Shown in pieces: positions 7,800 to 59,848 of a stretch of DNA of 64,000 nt. The notes beneath the pieces were generated by a model that worked only from the letters and a program-made list of their open reading frames with translations, was not told the DNA's origin and ran no database searches. The translations under genes were made by a program, and so were the position numbers. This DNA comes from a virus: positions 1 through 64,000 of the IMG/VR virus record IMGVR_UViG_3300007177_000160; one strand, given 5' to 3'. Within the stretch, counting starts at the first letter, position 1, and every line of letters starts with the position of its first letter.

Positions 7800-9494
7800 T
7801 TATAAACTATTTAATATACTTTCTATTTGTGCTCCAGTAGTTTCTACTGTAGCAGCGTTTTTAACTCTTCGACCTATACTGTTTAAAGTATTAATAGATG
7901 CCAAAGGAACAGACCAAATTGCATTAGGATCTAATACTGCGGTTCCTACTGTATTATCTACAGGCACATTGTTGGCTACGTTTGATGGAGAAGGTACTGC
8001 CATTGTTCCTAATAAAGTTCCAGAAGCATAACTAATTCCTGAACGAACATTTGCTGGAATTGGTGCGTCTACTGCTCCACCAGGAGAAACAAGTCGTGTA
8101 GCAGGAGCTACTGCTCCAGGAGATATAGCACCGTTAGTTGTCTCGTCTCTGAATTCAAAGTATGATGCAGCGTTGGGGATTAAGTGCATTCGAACACAAG
8201 CAATAGGCATTGTTCCGTATCTTGAACAAATAAAAGGCCCACTAAATAAATTAATCGCTGTTGCAGACGATCTAGCAACTGCAACACTTCCCTCTACTAT
8301 TGTTCCAATTACATTATCTTTACTTATCGGACCAACTATACTCAGTAAACTAGACTCACCCGAAGAAATTATAGGAGTCAGTCCCATTAAAAGACTTCCT
8401 GTTATATAAAGTCTTCCGTTTAATGTACCAAATACTGCGTAGCTATTTGCGGTAATATTAGTTACTGTGTTAATATTTCCTGTCACATAAGCAGTACTTA
8501 AAGTTCCTACTAAATTAAGAAACCTAGAACGTATTTCTGCTTGATTAAATGGAATTGTAATATTTCCTGTATAGTTTAAAGTTCCTGCTCCTGTAAGATT
8601 AAAATTAGTATAAAAATTTCTTCCATGTAAAATTAAATCTCCAACAAAATTTAAAGTTCCCGAACCAGTATGATTTACTAAGTAATATGTACTTGCCACA
8701 TAACCGAGATAAGTAGTAATAGTACCAGAAAGACTTGTACTAGTAGTTCCGTTATAAGTAAATAAAGTACTACCAGTGTTTTGTATAAAACCATCAACTG
8801 TATTTGTAGTCACCACAGATATTCCATCAGTTAAAACAAAACTGCCCCCTGCTACAGCATTTACGGCATATCCTACCTCATCAAATAATCTTAATTCACC
8901 TATTGATACCCAAGAACTTGGAGTTACTGCAGCTGTTATGAATAATCTATATCTCGAATAAGCTGTAGAATTTGCAAATGATCTTACATAAGCAGAGTTT
9001 AAACTGTTTGCAGTAATTCCAGACACGCTGTCTAAAACAACCCACGAGGTACCATCCCAAGCTTGGAACTCCCAAGCAGAGGGAATATTTGAGGACCAGT
9101 TAGAAGCTTTTATAGAGTAAGCTTTTACAAGTTGTGGCGAAACAAATTCATATTGTAACCACTGAGGAGACGCAAAAGCACCATTAGTAGTAAGCCAATA
9201 ATCACTGGCTGCTACATCTAGTCCATTAAATGCTTTCCATGCAAAATAAGGATTACCGTATTCTGAACTAGCTGAAGCAGTGCCAGAAGGTGTAGTATAG
9301 CCCGTCATTATAGGTATTAGACTGACAGCTCCTGTAGCAGCGTTGGTAATTACTCCTACATTTACATTCTGGTCTATTGTAACTGTAAAATTGTTTGATG
9401 CTACAATATCACCAGGTTGAGGTAGTGTACCTCCACTCCAAATTGCTGGGTTAGACCAGTTACCATTTGCTACTGCTACTTTTAACCCAGGCAT
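7800..9494 (-). CDS. Tail/virion protein with discoidin-like domain, paralog 1
   Basis: Same N-terminal, discoidin and C-terminal blocks as 6071-7798. Confidence 0.75.
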   Translation of the reverse strand: MPGLKVAVANGNWSNPAIWSGGTLPQPGDIVASNNFTVTIDQNVNVGVITNAATGAVSLIPIMTGYTTPSGTASASSEYGNPYFAWKAFNGLDVAASDYWLTTNGAFASPQWLQYEFVSPQLVKAYSIKASNWSSNIPSAWEFQAWDGTSWVVLDSVSGITANSLNSAYVRSFANSTAYSRYRLFITAAVTPSSWVSIGELRLFDEVGYAVNAVAGGSFVLTDGISVVTTNTVDGFIQNTGSTLFTYNGTTSTSLSGTITTYLGYVASTYYLVNHTGSGTLNFVGDLILHGRNFYTNFNLTGAGTLNYTGNITIPFNQAEIRSRFLNLVGTLSTAYVTGNINTVTNITANSYAVFGTLNGRLYITGSLLMGLTPIISSGESSLLSIVGPISKDNVIGTIVEGSVAVARSSATAINLFSGPFICSRYGTMPIACVRMHLIPNAASYFEFRDETTNGAISPGAVAPATRLVSPGGAVDAPIPANVRSGISYASGTLLGTMAVPSPSNVANNVPVDNTVGTAVLDPNAIWSVPLASINTLNSIGRRVKNAATVETTGAQIESILNSL

Positions 9495-28328: not shown

Positions 28329-28398
28329 AGTCAGGTGGCGTAATTGGTAACGCCTTGGTTTATTACAAGAGATACGAGTTCGAGTCTCGTCCTGGCTG
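28329..28398 (+). tRNA. tRNA-like RNA with aberrant anticodon arm (identity undetermined)
   Basis: AGTCAGG/CCTGGCT acceptor, GCGT/ACGC D stem and ACGAG-TTCGAGT-CTCGT T arm are intact; anticodon arm is CTTG-GTTTATTA-CAAG (4 bp, 8-nt loop). Confidence 0.7.
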
Positions 28399-28509
28399 CG
28401 AGAACTGCCTACACAGTTCGGGTTTTCATCATATTGATTTTTTTTTGATTAGTGAATTAAGGCCTTGTAGGGGGCCTTTTTTATTATCAGTACAATTAGT
28501 ATAATCGAT

Positions 28510-29886: not shown

Positions 29887-30774
29887 ATGGCAAACTCAAA
29901 AATCGCAAGCACAAAAAAATTAATTAAAGACATCGTAGTAGACAAAGAAACTAGTCGTAAAGAAAAAATTACTGACGTAGAAAAAGCCTACATCACCTAC
30001 CAAACAGCTATTAGCATTGATATAAACTATCCATTAAAGAACTTACAGTTTATACCAAGTTCTATTCCATTGGGTAGCTTAGATGGCTTACAGCGTCCTG
30101 TAATTACTGCACACGGTAACACTTTAGCTAAGTCTATGAAAATGATGGGCAACATTCGTCCTATCATTGTGACTAAACTAAAAGAAAAGAACGGAAAGTA
30201 TAAGTTCTATGTGTTAGACGGTCAGCACAACTATAATGCATTGCTTAGTTTAAAAGCAGAAGAAATTCCCATTGTAGAGATAAGCACAAAAAGCACAGCA
30301 AACCTGGTAGAAACTATTGCATTGCTTAACTCTTCGTCTAAGTCTTGGAGTTTAAAAGATTATGTAACTGCTTGGTCTAATATCCATTCAGACTACGGTC
30401 TGTTAAAAAGATTGTACGACAAGTATGACATCGAGTTAAGTATTGTAGCTGCTGTGTGTACAGGTGCTAACTTAGGTAGTGCTACACCTGCTACTAAACT
30501 AATTAAGTCAGGTGAGTTCCGTATTTTTAACTTATCAGAGTCTGAACAGAAACTATCAGATATTAATGAAATTTTGAACGAATTACCTCGTATGGATAGA
30601 GCAGCTAATCGTTATTTTATTTTATCTTTGATAAGCGTATTTAACGAGATTAAGTACGGAAGAAAAGAACACAACAAACTATTAGACTACGTAAAAAATA
30701 ATCGTGAGATATTAAAGTTTGCGTTAAACAACGTAAACGAGCTCAAAGAATATCTTTTACAAGCATTTAACTAA
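29887..30774 (+). CDS. ParB/Srx-like N-terminal domain protein
   Basis: RPIIV...VLDGQH..NAL...LNSSSKSWSLKDY. Confidence 0.7.
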   Translation: MANSKIASTKKLIKDIVVDKETSRKEKITDVEKAYITYQTAISIDINYPLKNLQFIPSSIPLGSLDGLQRPVITAHGNTLAKSMKMMGNIRPIIVTKLKEKNGKYKFYVLDGQHNYNALLSLKAEEIPIVEISTKSTANLVETIALLNSSSKSWSLKDYVTAWSNIHSDYGLLKRLYDKYDIELSIVAAVCTGANLGSATPATKLIKSGEFRIFNLSESEQKLSDINEILNELPRMDRAANRYFILSLISVFNEIKYGRKEHNKLLDYVKNNREILKFALNNVNELKEYLLQAFN

Positions 30775-31850
30775 TGACACGCGAAGAGATTCAACAACAA
30801 GCACTCAAGGAAATCTCTAAACATCATAGATGCGGCATAGCGGTATCCATGGGGGTCGGTAAAACTTATATCGGCCTCCAGTATATCGCTGAGCATCTTA
30901 TTAACGGAGAAGTTCTTGTAGTAGCTCCTAAACGAGATATTTTTCAGTCCTGGATAGACGATGCAGGTAAGTTTGGATTATCAGACTTACTAAAGCATAT
31001 TACATTCACGACATATATCTCATTAACTAAACATAATCCAGAAGATTACTCTATTGTAATTCTGGATGAAGCTCACACCACTAAAGGTTCTCATACAGAG
31101 TTTTTAGATCACTATAAAGGCAGGATTCTCGGTCTTACTGGTACTCCTCCTAAATGGTTACAGTCTGAGAAAGGCATAATGATGCAGCGTTTTTATCCTA
31201 TCGTTTATTCTTACAGAGTAGAACAAGCTGTCGGTCACAACATCTTAAATGATTACCGCATATTTGTACACAAAGTACAGTTAAACGAAGCCAACACTTT
31301 AGAAACTAAACAAGGTTGGAAAACCAGCGAAAGAAAAAACTATGAGTGGTTGCGCAGACAGATAGAAGACGCTCCTAACGATAAGCAAGCTTTCTTTAAA
31401 CAGATTATGTGTATCAATGCTATCAAACAGTACCAAAGCAAAGAACAATATGTAAAGAAATGCTTATCGCTTATTCCTGAAAGTGAGAAATGCTTGATTT
31501 TTGCCAATACAATTGAACAGGCAGAACGTCTATGCGAAAACTCTCACCACTCAAAGAAAAAGAACTCCGACGACTTAGATGATTTCAAAAAAGGCAATAT
31601 AACAAGATTATCTGCTGTGGAACAATTAAGTGAGGGTGTGACTATTCCTAATCTTAGGCACATTATTATTATGCATTCTTACGGTAACGAGAAAAAAGCA
31701 TCACAAAAAATAGGCCGAGCATTGCGCCTAAACCCTGAAGAAGTATCAAAAATTCACGTACTAATGTATGAGAACACCATTGATGAAAAATGGGTAAAGC
31801 GTGCTCTTGAAGAATTTAATCCTGAAAAAATCAAATACACAACTATTTAA
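30774..31850 (+). CDS. SF2 (DEAH) helicase
   Basis: MGVGKT, DEAH, GLTGT, LSEGV, QKIGRALR. Confidence 0.92.
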   Translation: MTREEIQQQALKEISKHHRCGIAVSMGVGKTYIGLQYIAEHLINGEVLVVAPKRDIFQSWIDDAGKFGLSDLLKHITFTTYISLTKHNPEDYSIVILDEAHTTKGSHTEFLDHYKGRILGLTGTPPKWLQSEKGIMMQRFYPIVYSYRVEQAVGHNILNDYRIFVHKVQLNEANTLETKQGWKTSERKNYEWLRRQIEDAPNDKQAFFKQIMCINAIKQYQSKEQYVKKCLSLIPESEKCLIFANTIEQAERLCENSHHSKKKNSDDLDDFKKGNITRLSAVEQLSEGVTIPNLRHIIIMHSYGNEKKASQKIGRALRLNPEEVSKIHVLMYENTIDEKWVKRALEEFNPEKIKYTTI

Positions 31851-31851
31851 A

Positions 31852-32157
31852 ATGGAACTAACAAGATTAACACCCGAAATGCTTCCCGAAATGGGATTCA
31901 GAAAAATAAGTTACATAGACGAAGACACCAATAAAGAAGTCTTCCATTACGAACTTCCGCTTAGTAAGACTACTTACCAAGATTTTATACTAATCTCTAA
32001 TCCCAATGACGAAGAAAATTTTCCAGTTATTCAGTTTTGTGGAGTAGACGAGTACGAAATCAAGCACGTAGAGCCCTTGGTTCTTTTAATTAATCTCTTG
32101 CAGAGTTGCTGCGTAGTAGATGAGTTTGTTATAGATAAACAATTTTCTGATGAGTAA
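31852..32157 (+). CDS. Hypothetical protein
   Basis: Probable start MELTRL. Confidence 0.7.
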   Translation: MELTRLTPEMLPEMGFRKISYIDEDTNKEVFHYELPLSKTTYQDFILISNPNDEENFPVIQFCGVDEYEIKHVEPLVLLINLLQSCCVVDEFVIDKQFSDE

Positions 32158-33694
32158 TAAACACATAAAACTATACACAGAAGAACAAATGAGACAAGCA
32201 TTCAATTGCGGTAGTTTATATTTAAGCAGGGAAGGCGATACAAATTTTCATCAGTTGATAGACAAACTAACACCCATTGAACTACCAAGTGATGAGGAGA
32301 TACGAGAAGAGAGATTGTTACAATTTCCCGATTCTGAATATGCTAACAGGGCAAACGATAGACTTGCCTTTTTATGTGGAGCAAAATTCGTAATAAACAA
32401 AATACAAGGAGGTAACAAATGAGCAACAATAAACAAAGTATGACAAATAATAAACCACACGGATTCTGTGAAACTCCAGAAGAAAAATGCACAATGAATT
32501 ATTGTGATGAAAATGGATGTGTCAACAGAAAGAGAAATCTTGTAGGAGACGGAGACCCAATTGATACGAGCAACTATAAACTAAGTAGCGTATATGCAGT
32601 AACGGGAGTAGATCACGGGTCAATAGTTACCGCAATGAATGAACAACAAGCCATTGAAATTTTTCAAAAAGTTTATAATGGTGAAGAGATTATTTGCGTT
32701 AAGGATATTTCAAATTATAATTTAGAAAACTTATGAGCAACAATAAGCAAAGTATAAAACTATATACAGAAGAACAGGTAATAAGAATTGCAAAATTATA
32801 TAGACATGAATTATATGTATTATATGCAGCAATGAAAACTGAAACCCCCATCGAACTACCGAGTGATGAGGAGATAGAGGAATATGCAGATAGTGTAATG
32901 CCTTATGCAGAAAAAATAGGGGGAGAAACATATACTGCGTATAGAGCAATTAAACTAGGCGCAAAATGGGTGTGTAAAATAATACAAGGAGGTAACAAAT
33001 GATTTGGTTACTTGGTATTGTATGCATAATTGTCCTAGTTGGAGTACTTTCTGTTGACAATAAAAAACAAAAAGACTTGTTCAGCTTTCTAGTGTCTTTG
33101 CTTATGACTTTATGTTTTTTACTTGGTGTTTTAATGGTAGACGAAGTGGGTATAAAATCAGATAAACCACTTACTCCTTCCGTTAGAATTGAGTGTAAAG
33201 ACGGTAAGTGTGATACTACCTACATTTACATAGGAGATAACAAATGAGCAACAAAAAAAGTAGCATAGAGTACTACATCGTAAACTTGATTAATATACTT
33301 GGAGATGAAATTTGCAACAAAATTACTATTGAACAAAATAATAAGATTGTAATTTTAGAAAAACAAGCCAAAGCAATGCACAAGGAGGAGAAAAAACAAG
33401 TACTCAAAGATTATTTTGCTTGGCATAAGTCAAAAGGATTTGTAAGTCATAAAAAAGAAGATATTGAAGAGTTTATTAACGAAACATTTGAAGGTAACAA
33501 TGAAGATTAATCCAATAATTGCAGCACTTTTAACAATGGTAGGGATATACCTATTGATATCATTTGCCATATGGGAACTAAATGCTAAATACTGGAAGAC
33601 AGAAGCAAGGGTAATGTATGCTTTGTTTGCTCCAATATTTGCAGCATTGATGTATTCATCAGTTAAAGTTTGCAACAATCAAAATTACAAATGA
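32150..33694 (+). repeat. Array of six small overlapping genes joined by shared junction repeats (AATACAAGGAGGTAACAAATGA / ATGAGCAACAATAA)
   Basis: ORFs 32150-32422, 32419-32736, 32733-33002, 32999-33247, 33244-33510, 33500-33694; starts MSNNKQS/MSNK, ends IQGGNK/IGDNK/EGNN; PIELPSDEEI occurs twice. Confidence 0.8.
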
Positions 33695-33780
33695 GCGGAG
33701 GAAGATTTGAGTAAACTAGATTTTGCTCAATAAAGCATATCACTTTATTATTTGCCACTAATTGATTGTTAGTGGCTTTT

Positions 33781-33816
33781 TTGAGGGTGCTTTTGAGGGA
33801 GCTCTTGAGGGTGCTA
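33781..33816. repeat. 12-bp tandem repeat TTGAGGGWGCTN x3
   Basis: Direct observation; intergenic. Confidence 0.8.
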
Positions 33817-33927
33817 TTTGTGAAAAAATCACAATAAGTTGTCATTAAAGTACCAAAATGATGGATTTATGCGTCATTAATGACCATTTATCACATTAAA
33901 GTAGGATTTATCATACATTTTAAAACT

Positions 33928-36862: not shown

Positions 36863-37657
36863 ATGAATTCAGGAGTATACGCTATTGTATGTAGAGCCAA
36901 TAATAAATTTTATATTGGCTCTTCTGTTAATCTATCAAAACGAATAAATCAGCATAAAAAAGCACTTGAAAATAAAAGGCATAAAAATCCACATTTACAA
37001 AATGCTTATAATTTATTTGGAAAAAATGAATTTTACTATCTTATAATAGATTATTGTCTAGATACTCTTGAGAAAGAACAATATTGGATTACTTCAACTT
37101 TTTGTTATGATAGAAAAATAGGTTTTAATAACACTAAAAAAGCAAACGCTCCTTTAGGTTATAAACATACTTCCGAGTCTAGAAAAATTATGTCTGATAT
37201 TAAAAAACAACAATACAAAGAAGGAAAAATTGCTTCTAATTTTAAATTTAGAACTGTTACAAAACATTCAGAAGAAACTAAAGAAAAAATAAGACAAACA
37301 AAGTTAGGTGAAAAAAATCCTATGTATGGTAAAAAACTCTCTCAAAAAGAAAAAGAAGACAAGAGCAGAGCTATGAATTCTGTACCAAGATGGAATGCAG
37401 GAAAAACCTCAAAAGACGATCCTAGGTTGTTAAAATTAGCAACATGGAAAGGAAAATTGCCCCCTAATGCTAAAAAATGTAGACTTATTAATGAGTTAGA
37501 AAATGTAGACATTCAAGCAAATTCTTTAAAAGAGTTATCAGAAAAATCTAAAATTCCTCAAATAGCAATAAGCAGAATTTTAAAAAACAAGAGTAAAAAA
37601 TATAAAAATTATAAAATTATTTATGAAAGTACAACTTTTATCCCATTGGGGAAATGA
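36863..37657 (+). mobile_element. Free-standing GIY-YIG homing endonuclease with NUMOD3 repeats
   Basis: SGVYAI...FYIGSS.N...R...H, EQYWI, KHTSESRKIMS / KHSEETKEKIR...GEKNPMYGKK; AT-rich; own TTTG-N20-TATATTTG promoter. Confidence 0.92.
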
Positions 37658-45015: not shown

Positions 45016-45768
45016 ATGTCAAGCAAATTAATCGCAATCGTCGGCCCAAGTGGTACAGGGAAATCAACCTCCATCAAATCATTGAATCCGAAAGAGACGT
45101 TTATTATTAACGTCGCACGCAAAGAACTCCCATTCAGGGGAGCAGAGAAACTCTACAATCTAGAGTCTAAAAACTACATGGAAGTAGATGACATCGCACA
45201 AATTACAGGACTCTTAAACACTATCAGTGAAAAGGCTCCACACATCAAGAACGTAATTATGGATGATGCTATCTATTCTATGTCATTCTTAATGATGCGT
45301 AAAGCTAACGAGGTTGGCTTTGCAAAATTTACAAACCTCGCACAGCAAGTAACCAACATGCTTACTACTGCGCGTAGACTTCGTAACGACCTTAAAGTAT
45401 TTTACATTACTCACTCTGAGAACATAGAAGACGAAGGTAAAATCGTAGGCCAGAAAATTAAAACTATCGGTAAAGCATTGGACAACCAAATTGTATTGGA
45501 AGGTTTATTTACTATTGCTTTGTACACTCACATTGACGAGGACAAGAATGGTATGCCGACTTATCACTTTGTAACCAATCGTTTCCGCAACTATCCAGCG
45601 AAGAGCCCTATGGACATGTTTCCAGAGGTTCTTATTCCTAATGACCTACAATTAGTTTGTAATATGGTAGATGAATATTACAATGACGAAACCGCAACTC
45701 CTGCTCCTGTAGCAAGTATCCCAACTAAAAAAGTAAAAGAAACATTAACTCAACCCGAAACAAATTAA
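45016..45768 (+). CDS. AAA ATPase (Sak4/AAA_24-like)
   Basis: GPSGTGKSTS, IMDD, THSE, KIKTIGK, EGLFT, AKSP. Confidence 0.88.
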   Translation: MSSKLIAIVGPSGTGKSTSIKSLNPKETFIINVARKELPFRGAEKLYNLESKNYMEVDDIAQITGLLNTISEKAPHIKNVIMDDAIYSMSFLMMRKANEVGFAKFTNLAQQVTNMLTTARRLRNDLKVFYITHSENIEDEGKIVGQKIKTIGKALDNQIVLEGLFTIALYTHIDEDKNGMPTYHFVTNRFRNYPAKSPMDMFPEVLIPNDLQLVCNMVDEYYNDETATPAPVASIPTKKVKETLTQPETN

Positions 45769-50353: not shown

Positions 50354-51004
50354 TTGCTTATGTTCAAACGCAACCCCAAAAAGGTTCCTGTAAAAGGAGA
50401 GCCTGAAAAGAAAGTCATTGAAACAATCTGTAATGACTGTGGTCGGAAACGGCCATACGCAAACAAGACTAAGAAATTATGTAGTGTGTGCGTTCAGAAA
50501 CAAGCAAAAGAGAAAGCCAAACTCAAAAGAGAAGCAGTCCGTAAAAAGAAAGCAGACACTATTACACAAGCTAAGTTAGACCAAATGACTTCTTGGTTAA
50601 TCAGAGCTGCCTTTGAAGAAAAATGCCATGCATGTGGGGTTCAGATGCCTAGAAAGCAATTACAATGCTGTCACTTCGTTAGTCGCACAAAGTCAATGAC
50701 ACGATATGATTTACGCAATATGCTTCCTGGTTGTCCTACCTGCAACATGTACACTCCTCACCACGTATGGAACTTAGGTAAGTCCATCAACAAGATATGG
50801 GGTAACGACATGACTGAAACTCTTTTGGACATTTCTACTACTAGCCTTAAACTAAACAACAACGATCGTAGGCAAATCTATGATATCTTTAAGGATGCTT
50901 TGGAAAGAATCGAATCAGGCAATTATAATTTAAGTGAGAAGCAGGTAATACTAACCATCTGCTACAATGAATATTCTGTGATAGTAGATAAAATTATAAA
51001 GTAA
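50354..51004 (+). CDS. NinG/Rap-like endonuclease
   Basis: C.ACG...QCCHFVSR....RYDLRN...C..CN. Confidence 0.8.
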   Translation: MLMFKRNPKKVPVKGEPEKKVIETICNDCGRKRPYANKTKKLCSVCVQKQAKEKAKLKREAVRKKKADTITQAKLDQMTSWLIRAAFEEKCHACGVQMPRKQLQCCHFVSRTKSMTRYDLRNMLPGCPTCNMYTPHHVWNLGKSINKIWGNDMTETLLDISTTSLKLNNNDRRQIYDIFKDALERIESGNYNLSEKQVILTICYNEYSVIVDKIIK

Positions 51005-59478: not shown

Positions 59479-59480
59479 CG

Positions 59481-59848
59481 AGGAGATAGAGGGAATTGAA
59501 CCCTCGTCCAGAGAAAGCTGCAATTTAATGCTGTTTACACGCTTAGTACTGAGCAAGCTCTGCACCGTAAGGGTTGACCGAAGTCAGATTCCACCACCTA
59601 GTTGAGTTGTCGGTAAACTAGGAAACCTAGAAGCAAGCTTCATGTGCCATTTTCTGTTCCAGGGGATGACTCCCCGTGACTTAGGCTGCCATTTGATATT
59701 CGTTCACGAACTCAACTGCATCTTCAAAAGTCATGTCAGATAATTCTACGTTGCCGTTTAATTAGTTTGATACGTGATTATAGAGAACAGTACCATCTCT
59801 CTGCGTGAGCACTAAACCCAATCAATCCTGTCGATTCCTGTTATCCCC
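59481..59848 (-). ncRNA. ssrA: tmRNA; tag (A)GNVELSDMTFEDAVEFVNEYQMAA
   Basis: 5' GGGGATA...GGAATCGAC; 3' GAC-GAGGG-TTCAATT-CCCTC-TATCTCC with G3-U70; tag ORF 59755-59681 ends AA*; promoter TAACTTTG just upstream. Confidence 0.93.

Follow-up and report, generated by a model that had tools for sequence, protein, structure and literature searches.

Hyperplastic regions of T4-type phage genomes carry promoter-early stem-loop (PeSL) cassettes (Arbiol et al. 2010, PMC2839356; Comeau et al. 2014, PMC4122927), which are the closest published analogue of the locus described here: the logic is the same, the signal is different. This locus lies in the first 64,000 nucleotides (hereafter the window) of IMG/VR record IMGVR_UViG_3300007177_000160, a complete phage genome of 114,265 bp with a GC content of 0.37 and a terminal repeat. 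Directly after a helicase gene and one gene of 101 codons, six small genes (A to F, 32150-33694) form a single terminator-bounded chain with stop/start overlaps of 4 to 11 bases. We consider it likely that this array is a hyperplastic accessory-gene operon, in which the genes are linked by a portable joint that is conserved as DNA, and are exchanged at these joints and at short conserved islands. Judged by the comparison of related sequences, the finding is real and well supported.

Alignment of the seven junctions of the array yielded one composite joint of ~35-40 nt, which consists of a tail and a leader. The tail, GGAGGTAACAAATGA, comprises GGNK-stop, a Shine-Dalgarno (SD) sequence and the next ATG. 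Its left part, GGAGGTAACAA, provides the last codons of the upstream gene (Gly-Gly-Asn-Lys), ends in ATGA and carries a perfect SD at a distance of 5-6 nt from the following ATG. The right part, or leader, ATGAGCAACAATAAACAA, is A-rich, encodes MSNNKQ and contains a TGA in frame +1 and a TAA in frame +2. Because of these stops, an upstream gene in either non-matching frame is terminated at most 14 nt from the next start, and the chain survives indels of one base in the A-run. Upstream genes end in ..GGNK-stop with a 4-nt overlap or, where the joint is one base shorter, in ..GGNNEQQ-stop with a 14-nt overlap, and a third variant, GGAGGAGGTGAGCAATGA, gives ..GGGEQ-stop; the frame decides whether this DNA yields GGNK-stop, GGNNEQQ-stop or MSNNKQ. 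The leader often stands in frame before the cargo's own Met, and half of the genes of family fam1, to which A and C belong, start directly at MKLYTEEQ.

The window holds this joint in various states of completeness. J1 consists of tail and leader, J3 of the tail only, the B/C junction of the leader only, and J4 of variants of both, while the junction of the upstream gene with A has an early TAA within a degenerate leader and the F/stub junction is a decayed joint followed by two leader codons. At J5 the tail has lost one A, so that E ends in a different frame (..GNNED-stop) and overlaps F by 11 nt; in a close relative from run X1 an extra A after 33498 restores the canonical form. An earlier note, made from these letters alone, had described six small genes chained mostly by ATGA overlaps. 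We found five such overlaps (A/B, B/C, C/D, D/E and F/stub), together with one of 8 nt between the upstream gene and A and the 11-nt overlap at E/F. The 22-mer AATACAAGGAGGTAACAAATGA that the note had pointed out is indeed identical at 32401 and 32981, with the variants AGGAGATAACAAATGA at 33232 and GAAGGTAACAATGA at 33490. A 16-mer of the joint, with up to 2 mismatches allowed, occurred 3 times in the window (0.10 expected from shuffles), and the start ATGAGCAACAANAA also had 3 occurrences (0.23 expected); joint and shared start are each ~13-30 times commoner than in shuffled sequence. The RNA of joint plus leader is unstructured (minimum free energy 0 kcal/mol; all 200 shuffles fold at least as well), and no inverted repeats were found at the joints. 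A scan of the plus strand for sigma-70-type promoters gave no match at any joint, and 11 matches in the whole region against 21 ± 4 in shuffles. In a simple terminator-pattern scan of the stretch 32085-33753 the only match was the one at 33754, after the array.

The clearest evidence for exchange came from close relatives (L302, L303 and L304), which were found with the upstream 101-aa gene as query; the same query had no match in viral_contigs. In L304 both flanks are 94-97% identical to the window, and a single gene of fam0, the family of gene E, takes the place of 32164-33480 (A to E). The left breakpoint, at 32163, falls inside the leader after ATGAG[CT]AATAAACA, and the right breakpoint, at 33481, falls at the E/F joint. 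In L303 the match to the window runs from the helicase across the upstream gene and gene A into the leader, as far as 32436, and three other cassettes follow. In L302 and L303, gene A agrees fully with that of the window in the leader and KLYTEEQ island and does so again from the middle island to the joint, with ~80 nt in between that cannot be aligned; the islands that bound this sub-genic swap are 95-100% identical. The IMG/VR contig L239 is 94% identical from 33483 onward and has a different leader-bearing gene before F; since it ends inside the array, it provides a right breakpoint only. At the position of gene E a different gene or allele is present in L304, L239 and X3. The earlier note had accepted that relatives with the same gene content, and breakpoints away from the repeats, would refute it; what we found between well-conserved flanks was differing content with the breakpoints at the repeats.

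Assembled Logan contigs of the same phage, from four freshwater or aquatic runs belonging to four studies, had flanks ~98-99% identical to the window and an even depth. These contigs end or diverge at 32182-32188 and at 33477-33481, and across X1, X3, L239 and L304 the right breakpoints all fall within 33477-33483. One bridging contig connects 32188 to 32843, another 32188 to 32974. One-base indels at 32417 and 33498 in the Logan contigs switch the joints between their two frame forms. Short joints in the read table (e.g. 32440 to 33362) had been considered as deletions; this was rejected, as they represent leader-bearing fam0 genes of other organisms. In four metagenomes, contig depth on the islands (32197-32450 and 33340-33466) was 10- to 40-fold above that of the phage flanks, which indicates that these short islands are also present in many other genomes of those samples.

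Exchange of parts of genes is also apparent among more distant members of fam1. The 3' half of gene A (32254-32422) is 93.5% identical at the nucleotide level to fam1 genes of the unrelated contigs L144 and L215, with no DNA similarity in the 5' half. The halves of fam1 genes reassort around the middle island, several half-types being found with two to four different partners; a four-gamete test on the halves of 26 fam1 genes revealed no strict violation. A and C are themselves paralogues of one family (39% amino-acid identity, E 3e-14), and the N-terminal island of A is identical to 32754-32776 in 22 of 23 nt. The block encoding PIELPSDEEI does occur twice, as had been noted (32269-32302 and 32843-32876, 31 of 34 nt identical). 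The idea that unrelated sequence lies in between did not hold: as A and C are paralogous, what lies between the blocks that they have in common is the variable segment of a single family and does not represent unrelated genes.

The joint is not restricted to this genome. A search across phage genomes with tabulation of the cargo, as had been proposed, retrieved one joint together with ~60 unrelated cargo families in more than 100 contigs. The leader 18-mer is present in at least 119 stretches of uncultured IMG/VR phages, with up to 8 copies per locus. Family statistics, based on 120 loci with 2,191 open reading frames (ORFs), placed leader-bearing members in 63 families, of which 21 are mixed (with and without leader), and joint tails in 65 families, of which 32 are mixed. 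The neighbours of fam1 genes (A and C) come from 31 different families on the downstream and 33 on the upstream side, the families of B, D, E and F differ from fam1 yet carry the same joint, and arrays in other loci draw on one pool of families in shuffled orders. Of the 117 stretches retrieved in a scan with the 16-mer tail alone, most represented generic SD sites in unrelated phages, and about 14 had homologues of A and C and the extended joint. In 596 Gb of bacterial genomes the leader 18-mer had 37 matches, ~31 of which were isolated single chance matches. The 45-kb contig CAUYTX010000333.1 (L270, L291), assigned to the assembly of a Gammaproteobacteria strain, has two copies of the leader and two families of the array locus; it is either a misbinned phage contig or a sign of a wider host range. 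Neither fam1 nor the joint was found in cultured phages, and a search of a paper library for MSNNKQ gave no match. In 30 crAss-like loci found through the helicase (~50% identity) there was no mini-gene homologue and no such joint, these loci being too distant for a test of synteny. Several of them (L004, L010, L011, L013, L014, L022, L028 and L029, ~7910-7965) show a conserved 14-nt overlap downstream of the helicase, ..HGED-stop over the next start ATGGGGAAGATTAAA (MGKIK), which resembles E/F (..NNED-stop over ATGAAGATTAA). A link between the joint and the Gly-Gly seams of virion cargo proteins was considered and rejected, as the seam codons vary and nothing there is joint-like.

Codon choice at the shared termini and islands is far more uniform than codon usage predicts. 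Among SD-seeded loci, MSNNKQ starts had the identical 18-mer in 20 of 23 cases (~1% expected from codon usage), and among leader-seeded loci GGNK tails had the identical 15-mer in 50 of 53 (3.7% expected). The codons of conserved fam1 residues are near-invariant, with CTA used for Leu in 98% (14% expected), AGT for Ser in 98% (20% expected) and ATA for Ile in 95% (23% expected). We also scored codon identity at identical residues in protein pairs with less than 55% amino-acid identity. The same-codon fraction was 0.79 for fam1, 0.71 for fam0 and 0.72 for both fam37 and fam51; in most other families from the same loci it was ~0.40, which is the codon-usage expectation (0.40 for fam2 and for the DnaB-like family), and a few others reached up to ~0.55-0.62. 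On this codon evidence, the joint is conserved as DNA and not as a peptide. Since the frozen synonymous sites are beyond the reach of protein-level selection, the islands must either be exchanged often or be read as nucleic acid.

The joint also carries the signals for initiation. The earlier note had remarked on its GGAGG in an otherwise SD-poor genome; a strong SD precedes 4 of 126 crude ORFs, and three of these four are inside the array. At the window joints GGAGGT stands 6 nt before the ATG at J1 and J3, with GGAGAT at J4 and GAAGGT at J5; B/C and F/stub have no SD. Across the array-bearing loci an SD precedes 21-30% of overlapping starts, compared with ~3% of non-overlapping starts, and this excess holds in loci that were not SD-seeded and in leaderless genes. 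In related loci the spacing from GGAGG to ATG is 5-7 nt. Relative to the upstream gene, GGAG occupies each of the three reading frames (151, 38 and 9 cases), and some ten joints lack homology to one another, which suggests selection for a role in reinitiation. Translational coupling by the joint would be in keeping with this anatomy.

With respect to recombination enzymes, the phage was said to be integrase-free, and neither a tyrosine recombinase (PF00589) nor a serine recombinase (PF00239) was found in the 100%-complete genome. A Sak4-like single-strand-annealing protein (PHROG 2872, E 7e-56) is a candidate enzyme for short-homology recombination, acting in trans. Together with a NinG/Rap-like junction endonuclease it makes up a recombination toolkit in this integrase-free phage. 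Several array-bearing contigs encode proteins that have, by appearance only, Erf-like and YqaJ-like N-terminal motifs. In the mechanism that we propose, the six small genes would be transcribed as one message ending at the 33754 terminator, exchanges would be homologous crossovers on the 15-40-nt identities of joints and islands, and these would be catalysed by the Sak4-like protein or equivalents. The joint would double as a termination-reinitiation site, in which case any cassette dropped between two joints would be expressed. The comparison of relatives shows gene shuffling at this locus, and from the positions of the breakpoints we infer homologous recombination as its mechanism. A homology-driven shuffling system had been postulated; the shuffling stands, and the word system implies a dedicated function, which goes beyond it. 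We can offer only tentatively, as a possibility, that the joint has been selected as a frame-independent 'universal adapter' that both recruits short-homology recombination and guarantees expression of the cargo between its copies. If so, terminating or bS21-lacking Bacteroidota ribosomes could use SD/anti-SD pairing for reinitiation, and phages would take advantage of a state of the ribosome that serves the host for rpsU alone.

Several points weigh against this account. Over all loci, 148 of 956 homology breakpoints fell near joint elements, whereas random gene starts gave 117 ± 10 and random positions 22; with so modest an excess, ordinary gene-boundary exchange explains part of the mosaicism. 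De Bruijn contigs break at any repeat, which makes contig ends weak evidence, so that only the bridging contigs and the assembled relatives count. The run data consist of assembled contigs only, and read-level crossovers, circles and deletions within one population are beyond their reach. Concerning coupling, overlapping starts outside the array have an SD in 0 of 24 cases in this phage, in 5 of 191 in crAss-like kin and in 0 of 12 in Cellulophaga phage phi19:3, so that the SD may travel with the joint as a passenger. Bacteroidia ribosomes sequester their anti-SD (PMC7797042, PMC9976891, PMC13000453), and Huber et al. (2019, PMC6728339) describe Bacteroidetes as the sole group in which SDs are not used even where genes overlap, with SDs at less than 10% of such pairs in their genomes. 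A phage-encoded bS21 was considered as an explanation for SD use and rejected, as bS21 is absent from the phage. The hosts are probably Bacteroidota, an indirect assignment based on crAss-like gene content, matches to Cellulophaga phages and four small contigs of Bacteroidota metagenome-assembled genomes. Strong SDs at coupled starts in phages of such probable hosts pose the question whether SD-blind Bacteroidia ribosomes use their anti-SD in reinitiation.

The modest breakpoint excess, ~1.3-fold at joint elements relative to other gene starts, also fits the alternative that nothing but selection on expression and protein function maintains the joints and islands, the mosaicism resulting from rare illegitimate recombination and subsequent selection for intact genes (Hendrix-type), and not from crossovers on the repeats. 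The existence of non-homologous SD-bearing overlaps likewise fits selection on expression. We nevertheless consider this explanation unlikely: the sub-genic swaps are flanked on both sides by islands that are 95-100% identical, the same few breakpoint positions recur in independent relatives and runs, and synonymous sites are frozen only in the array families, which protein-level selection cannot produce.

The DNA- or RNA-level conservation of an unstructured, A-rich initiation region across many co-located small genes could be taken to mean that joint and leader are mainly an operator for a trans-acting factor, be it a phage repressor of translation like RegA of T4, or a nuclease of the site-specific or homing type, and that conservation and recombination follow from this. 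The phage does carry homing endonucleases, among them one of the GIY-YIG type. No candidate binding protein co-occurs with the arrays in our tabulation, however, and intragenic islands far from any start are equally frozen at synonymous sites, which makes the operator explanation very unlikely as the principal one; it is compatible with exchange at joints and islands. That MSNNKQ and GGNK act as peptides, for targeting, processing or stability, would account for termini common to many proteins, but is highly improbable given that the same DNA is used in two frames to encode different peptides (GGNK, GGNNEQQ and NNEQQ versus MSNNKQ) and that codon choice is fixed far beyond the needs of a peptide. 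Local tandem duplication and divergence, with the repeats as leftovers of paralogy and no ongoing exchange, agrees with the paralogy of A and C but is scarcely credible, being already contradicted by the differing content of close relatives, by the same joint on B, D, E and F from other families, and by its association with ~60 families in more than 100 contigs.

The features of the array and its surroundings are listed in Table 1. The genome is that of a freshwater crAss-like phage, and the matches of its genes agree with this; the plus-strand replication block also encodes a primase, a DnaB-like protein and a PolA that is ~40% identical to those of crAss-like phages. ARAGORN reported a tRNA-like gene with an undetermined two-base anticodon (window 28329-28399) and, on the minus strand, a transfer-messenger RNA with a 24-residue tag beside tRNA-Glu and tRNA-Met (window 59480-59848).

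Table 1. Coordinates of the array, its joints and neighbouring features; positions refer to the window.
Feature	Position	Strand	Remarks
Tail and giant proteins	1-21 kb	minus	
Replication genes	24-59 kb	plus	
ParB-like protein	29887-30774		
SF2 helicase	30774-31850		
Upstream 101-aa gene	31852..32157	+	conserved left flank; protein 99-100% identical in L302, L303, L304
TAA of upstream gene	32155-32157	+	inside leader of gene A; 8-nt overlap with A
Gene A, 90 aa, fam1 (KLYTEEQ..PIELPSDEEI..KIQGGNK)	32150..32422	+	degenerate leader MSNKH; type-1 tail
N-terminal DNA island (KLYTEEQ codons)	32165..32190	+	left anchor of sub-genic swap
Middle DNA island (TP-IELPSDEEI codons)	32262..32302	+	right anchor of sub-genic swap; gene halves reassort there
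Joint J1	32401..32440	+	type-1 tail (GGAGGT, 6-nt spacer, ATGA), then canonical leader ATGAGCAACAATAAACAA
Gene B, 105 aa	32419..32736	+	leader MSNNKQS before the cargo's own Met8; residues 8-52 Cys-rich domain
Gene C, 89 aa, fam1 paralogue of A	32733..33002	+	canonical leader without SD; ATGA overlap with B; type-1 tail
Joint J3	32981..33002	+	type-1 tail identical to J1, then leaderless gene
Gene D, 82 aa, predicted membrane protein	32999..33247	+	type-1 variant tail (IGDNK-stop)
Joint J4	33232..33262	+	tail variant AGGAGATAACAAATGA and leader variant ATGAGCAACAAAAAA (MSNKK)
Gene E, 88 aa, fam0 (SSVEWL..QAKAMHKEE..YYNETYGG)	33244..33510	+	
Joint J5	33487..33510	+	type-1 tail minus one A (GAAGGTAACAATGA at 33490); right breakpoint common to relatives
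Gene F, 64 aa, predicted membrane protein	33500..33694	+	conserved right side; nucleotide identity 91% in L239, 85% in L304
Joint J6 and stub	33680..33714	+	degenerate tail TTACAAATGA, two leader codons (ATGAGC), GGAGG, stop
Stub gene, 7 codons (MSGGRFE-stop)	33691-33714	+	
Intrinsic-terminator-like hairpin (33754-33776) and T-run	33754..33784	+	closes array
GIY-YIG homing endonuclease	36863-37657		one of the homing endonucleases of the phage
Sak4-like single-strand-annealing protein	45016..45768	+	PHROG 2872, E 7e-56
NinG/Rap-like junction endonuclease	50354-51004		

The array encodes helical proteins as well as two that are predicted to be membrane proteins, and a single Cys-rich domain. A Pfam and PHROGs search with proteins A to F and their neighbours assigned no family to A-F. 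AlphaFold2 models of gene C (fam1) and gene E (fam0) were helical, with predicted local distance difference test (pLDDT) scores of 83.5 and 83.8 respectively, and a Foldseek search of the fam1 and fam0 models against the PDB gave no match below E 1. A homologue of gene D in L051 (41% identity) has different neighbours. Residues 8-52 of gene B are 64% identical at the amino-acid level to the 48-aa gp075 of the cultured Cellulophaga phage phi19:3, aligned from Met1 of gp075. The DNA of this Cys-rich domain (CETPEEKCTMNYCDENGC; window 32440-32576, L298:3977-4123) is 84% identical to that of gp075 over 74 nt, which is unusually high for a freshwater crAss-like phage and a marine siphovirus.

At the end of the array, the J6/stub is probably the scar of a lost cassette, and L304 has a different short stub at this position. 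In L106, L168 and L252 the leader is followed by an immediate stop (MSNNKQSMK-stop) in frame with the upstream gene; these sites look like scars of deleted fam1 cassettes, as does the MSGGRFE stub. The array had been described as ending in this stub, at 33691, and a 12-bp tandem repeat. Both are present, but the repeat lies outside the joints and is the sole occurrence of its motif in the 114-kb genome: three 12-nt units (TTTTGAGGGTGC-like) occupy 33781-33818, directly 3' of the array terminator. In L304 the terminator differs and the 12-nt repeat is lacking, which means that the spacer after the array is variable.

The array offers a concrete, sequence-defined mechanism by which phages may trade small accessory genes, the usual pool of anti-defence and host-takeover genes. 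Frozen synonymous sites provide a simple signature for locating exchange anchors elsewhere, and the joint could be a compact part for polycistronic constructs.

Comparison with known systems places the array closest to, but apart from, other modular arrangements. As in integron arrays, small cassettes that lack promoters are read from one side, and what lies between the conserved ends is variable. The array is nevertheless no integron: the phage has no IntI tyrosine recombinase, its cassettes overlap where those of an integron have recombination sites in between, and, as the joints do not fold, there are no attC-like imperfect palindromes. The modular theory of lambdoid phages, with which Susskind and Botstein (1978) and Clark et al. 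(2001) are reportedly associated, is said to propose short border homologies as crossover points between phages. Such homologies at module borders are shared with the present array, but the lambdoid linkers are few and weakly supported, whereas the sequence described here recurs hundreds of times and combines expression signals with frame-independent stops. The termination-reinitiation gene pairs of Huber et al. (2019, PMC6728339) resemble the joint in their 4-nt ATGA overlap and in a strong SD within the 3' end of the upstream gene; here, by contrast, the SDs at 21-30% of overlaps are mostly copies of one portable sequence and not independent sites. With PeSL cassettes the array shares short conserved regulatory repeats that flank small accessory ORFs in a hyperplastic region, the lack of a site-specific recombinase, and close relatives that differ by repeat-bounded insertion, deletion or replacement, as was also seen here. 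PeSLs, however, lie between genes and act on transcription, through a sigma-70-type promoter and a terminator hairpin, while the repeat described here is coding and translational. Recombination between neighbouring PeSLs releases mini-circles. The strong sigma-70-like early promoter of each PeSL has no counterpart here in a scan that covered sigma-70-type promoters, nor does its terminating stem-loop, the joint being unstructured. Frame-independent stops, and exchange at conserved islands within genes, are further features of the present array. With it, modular shuffling mediated by repeats is extended from the transcriptional PeSLs to a coding, translational joint that permits part-gene exchange.

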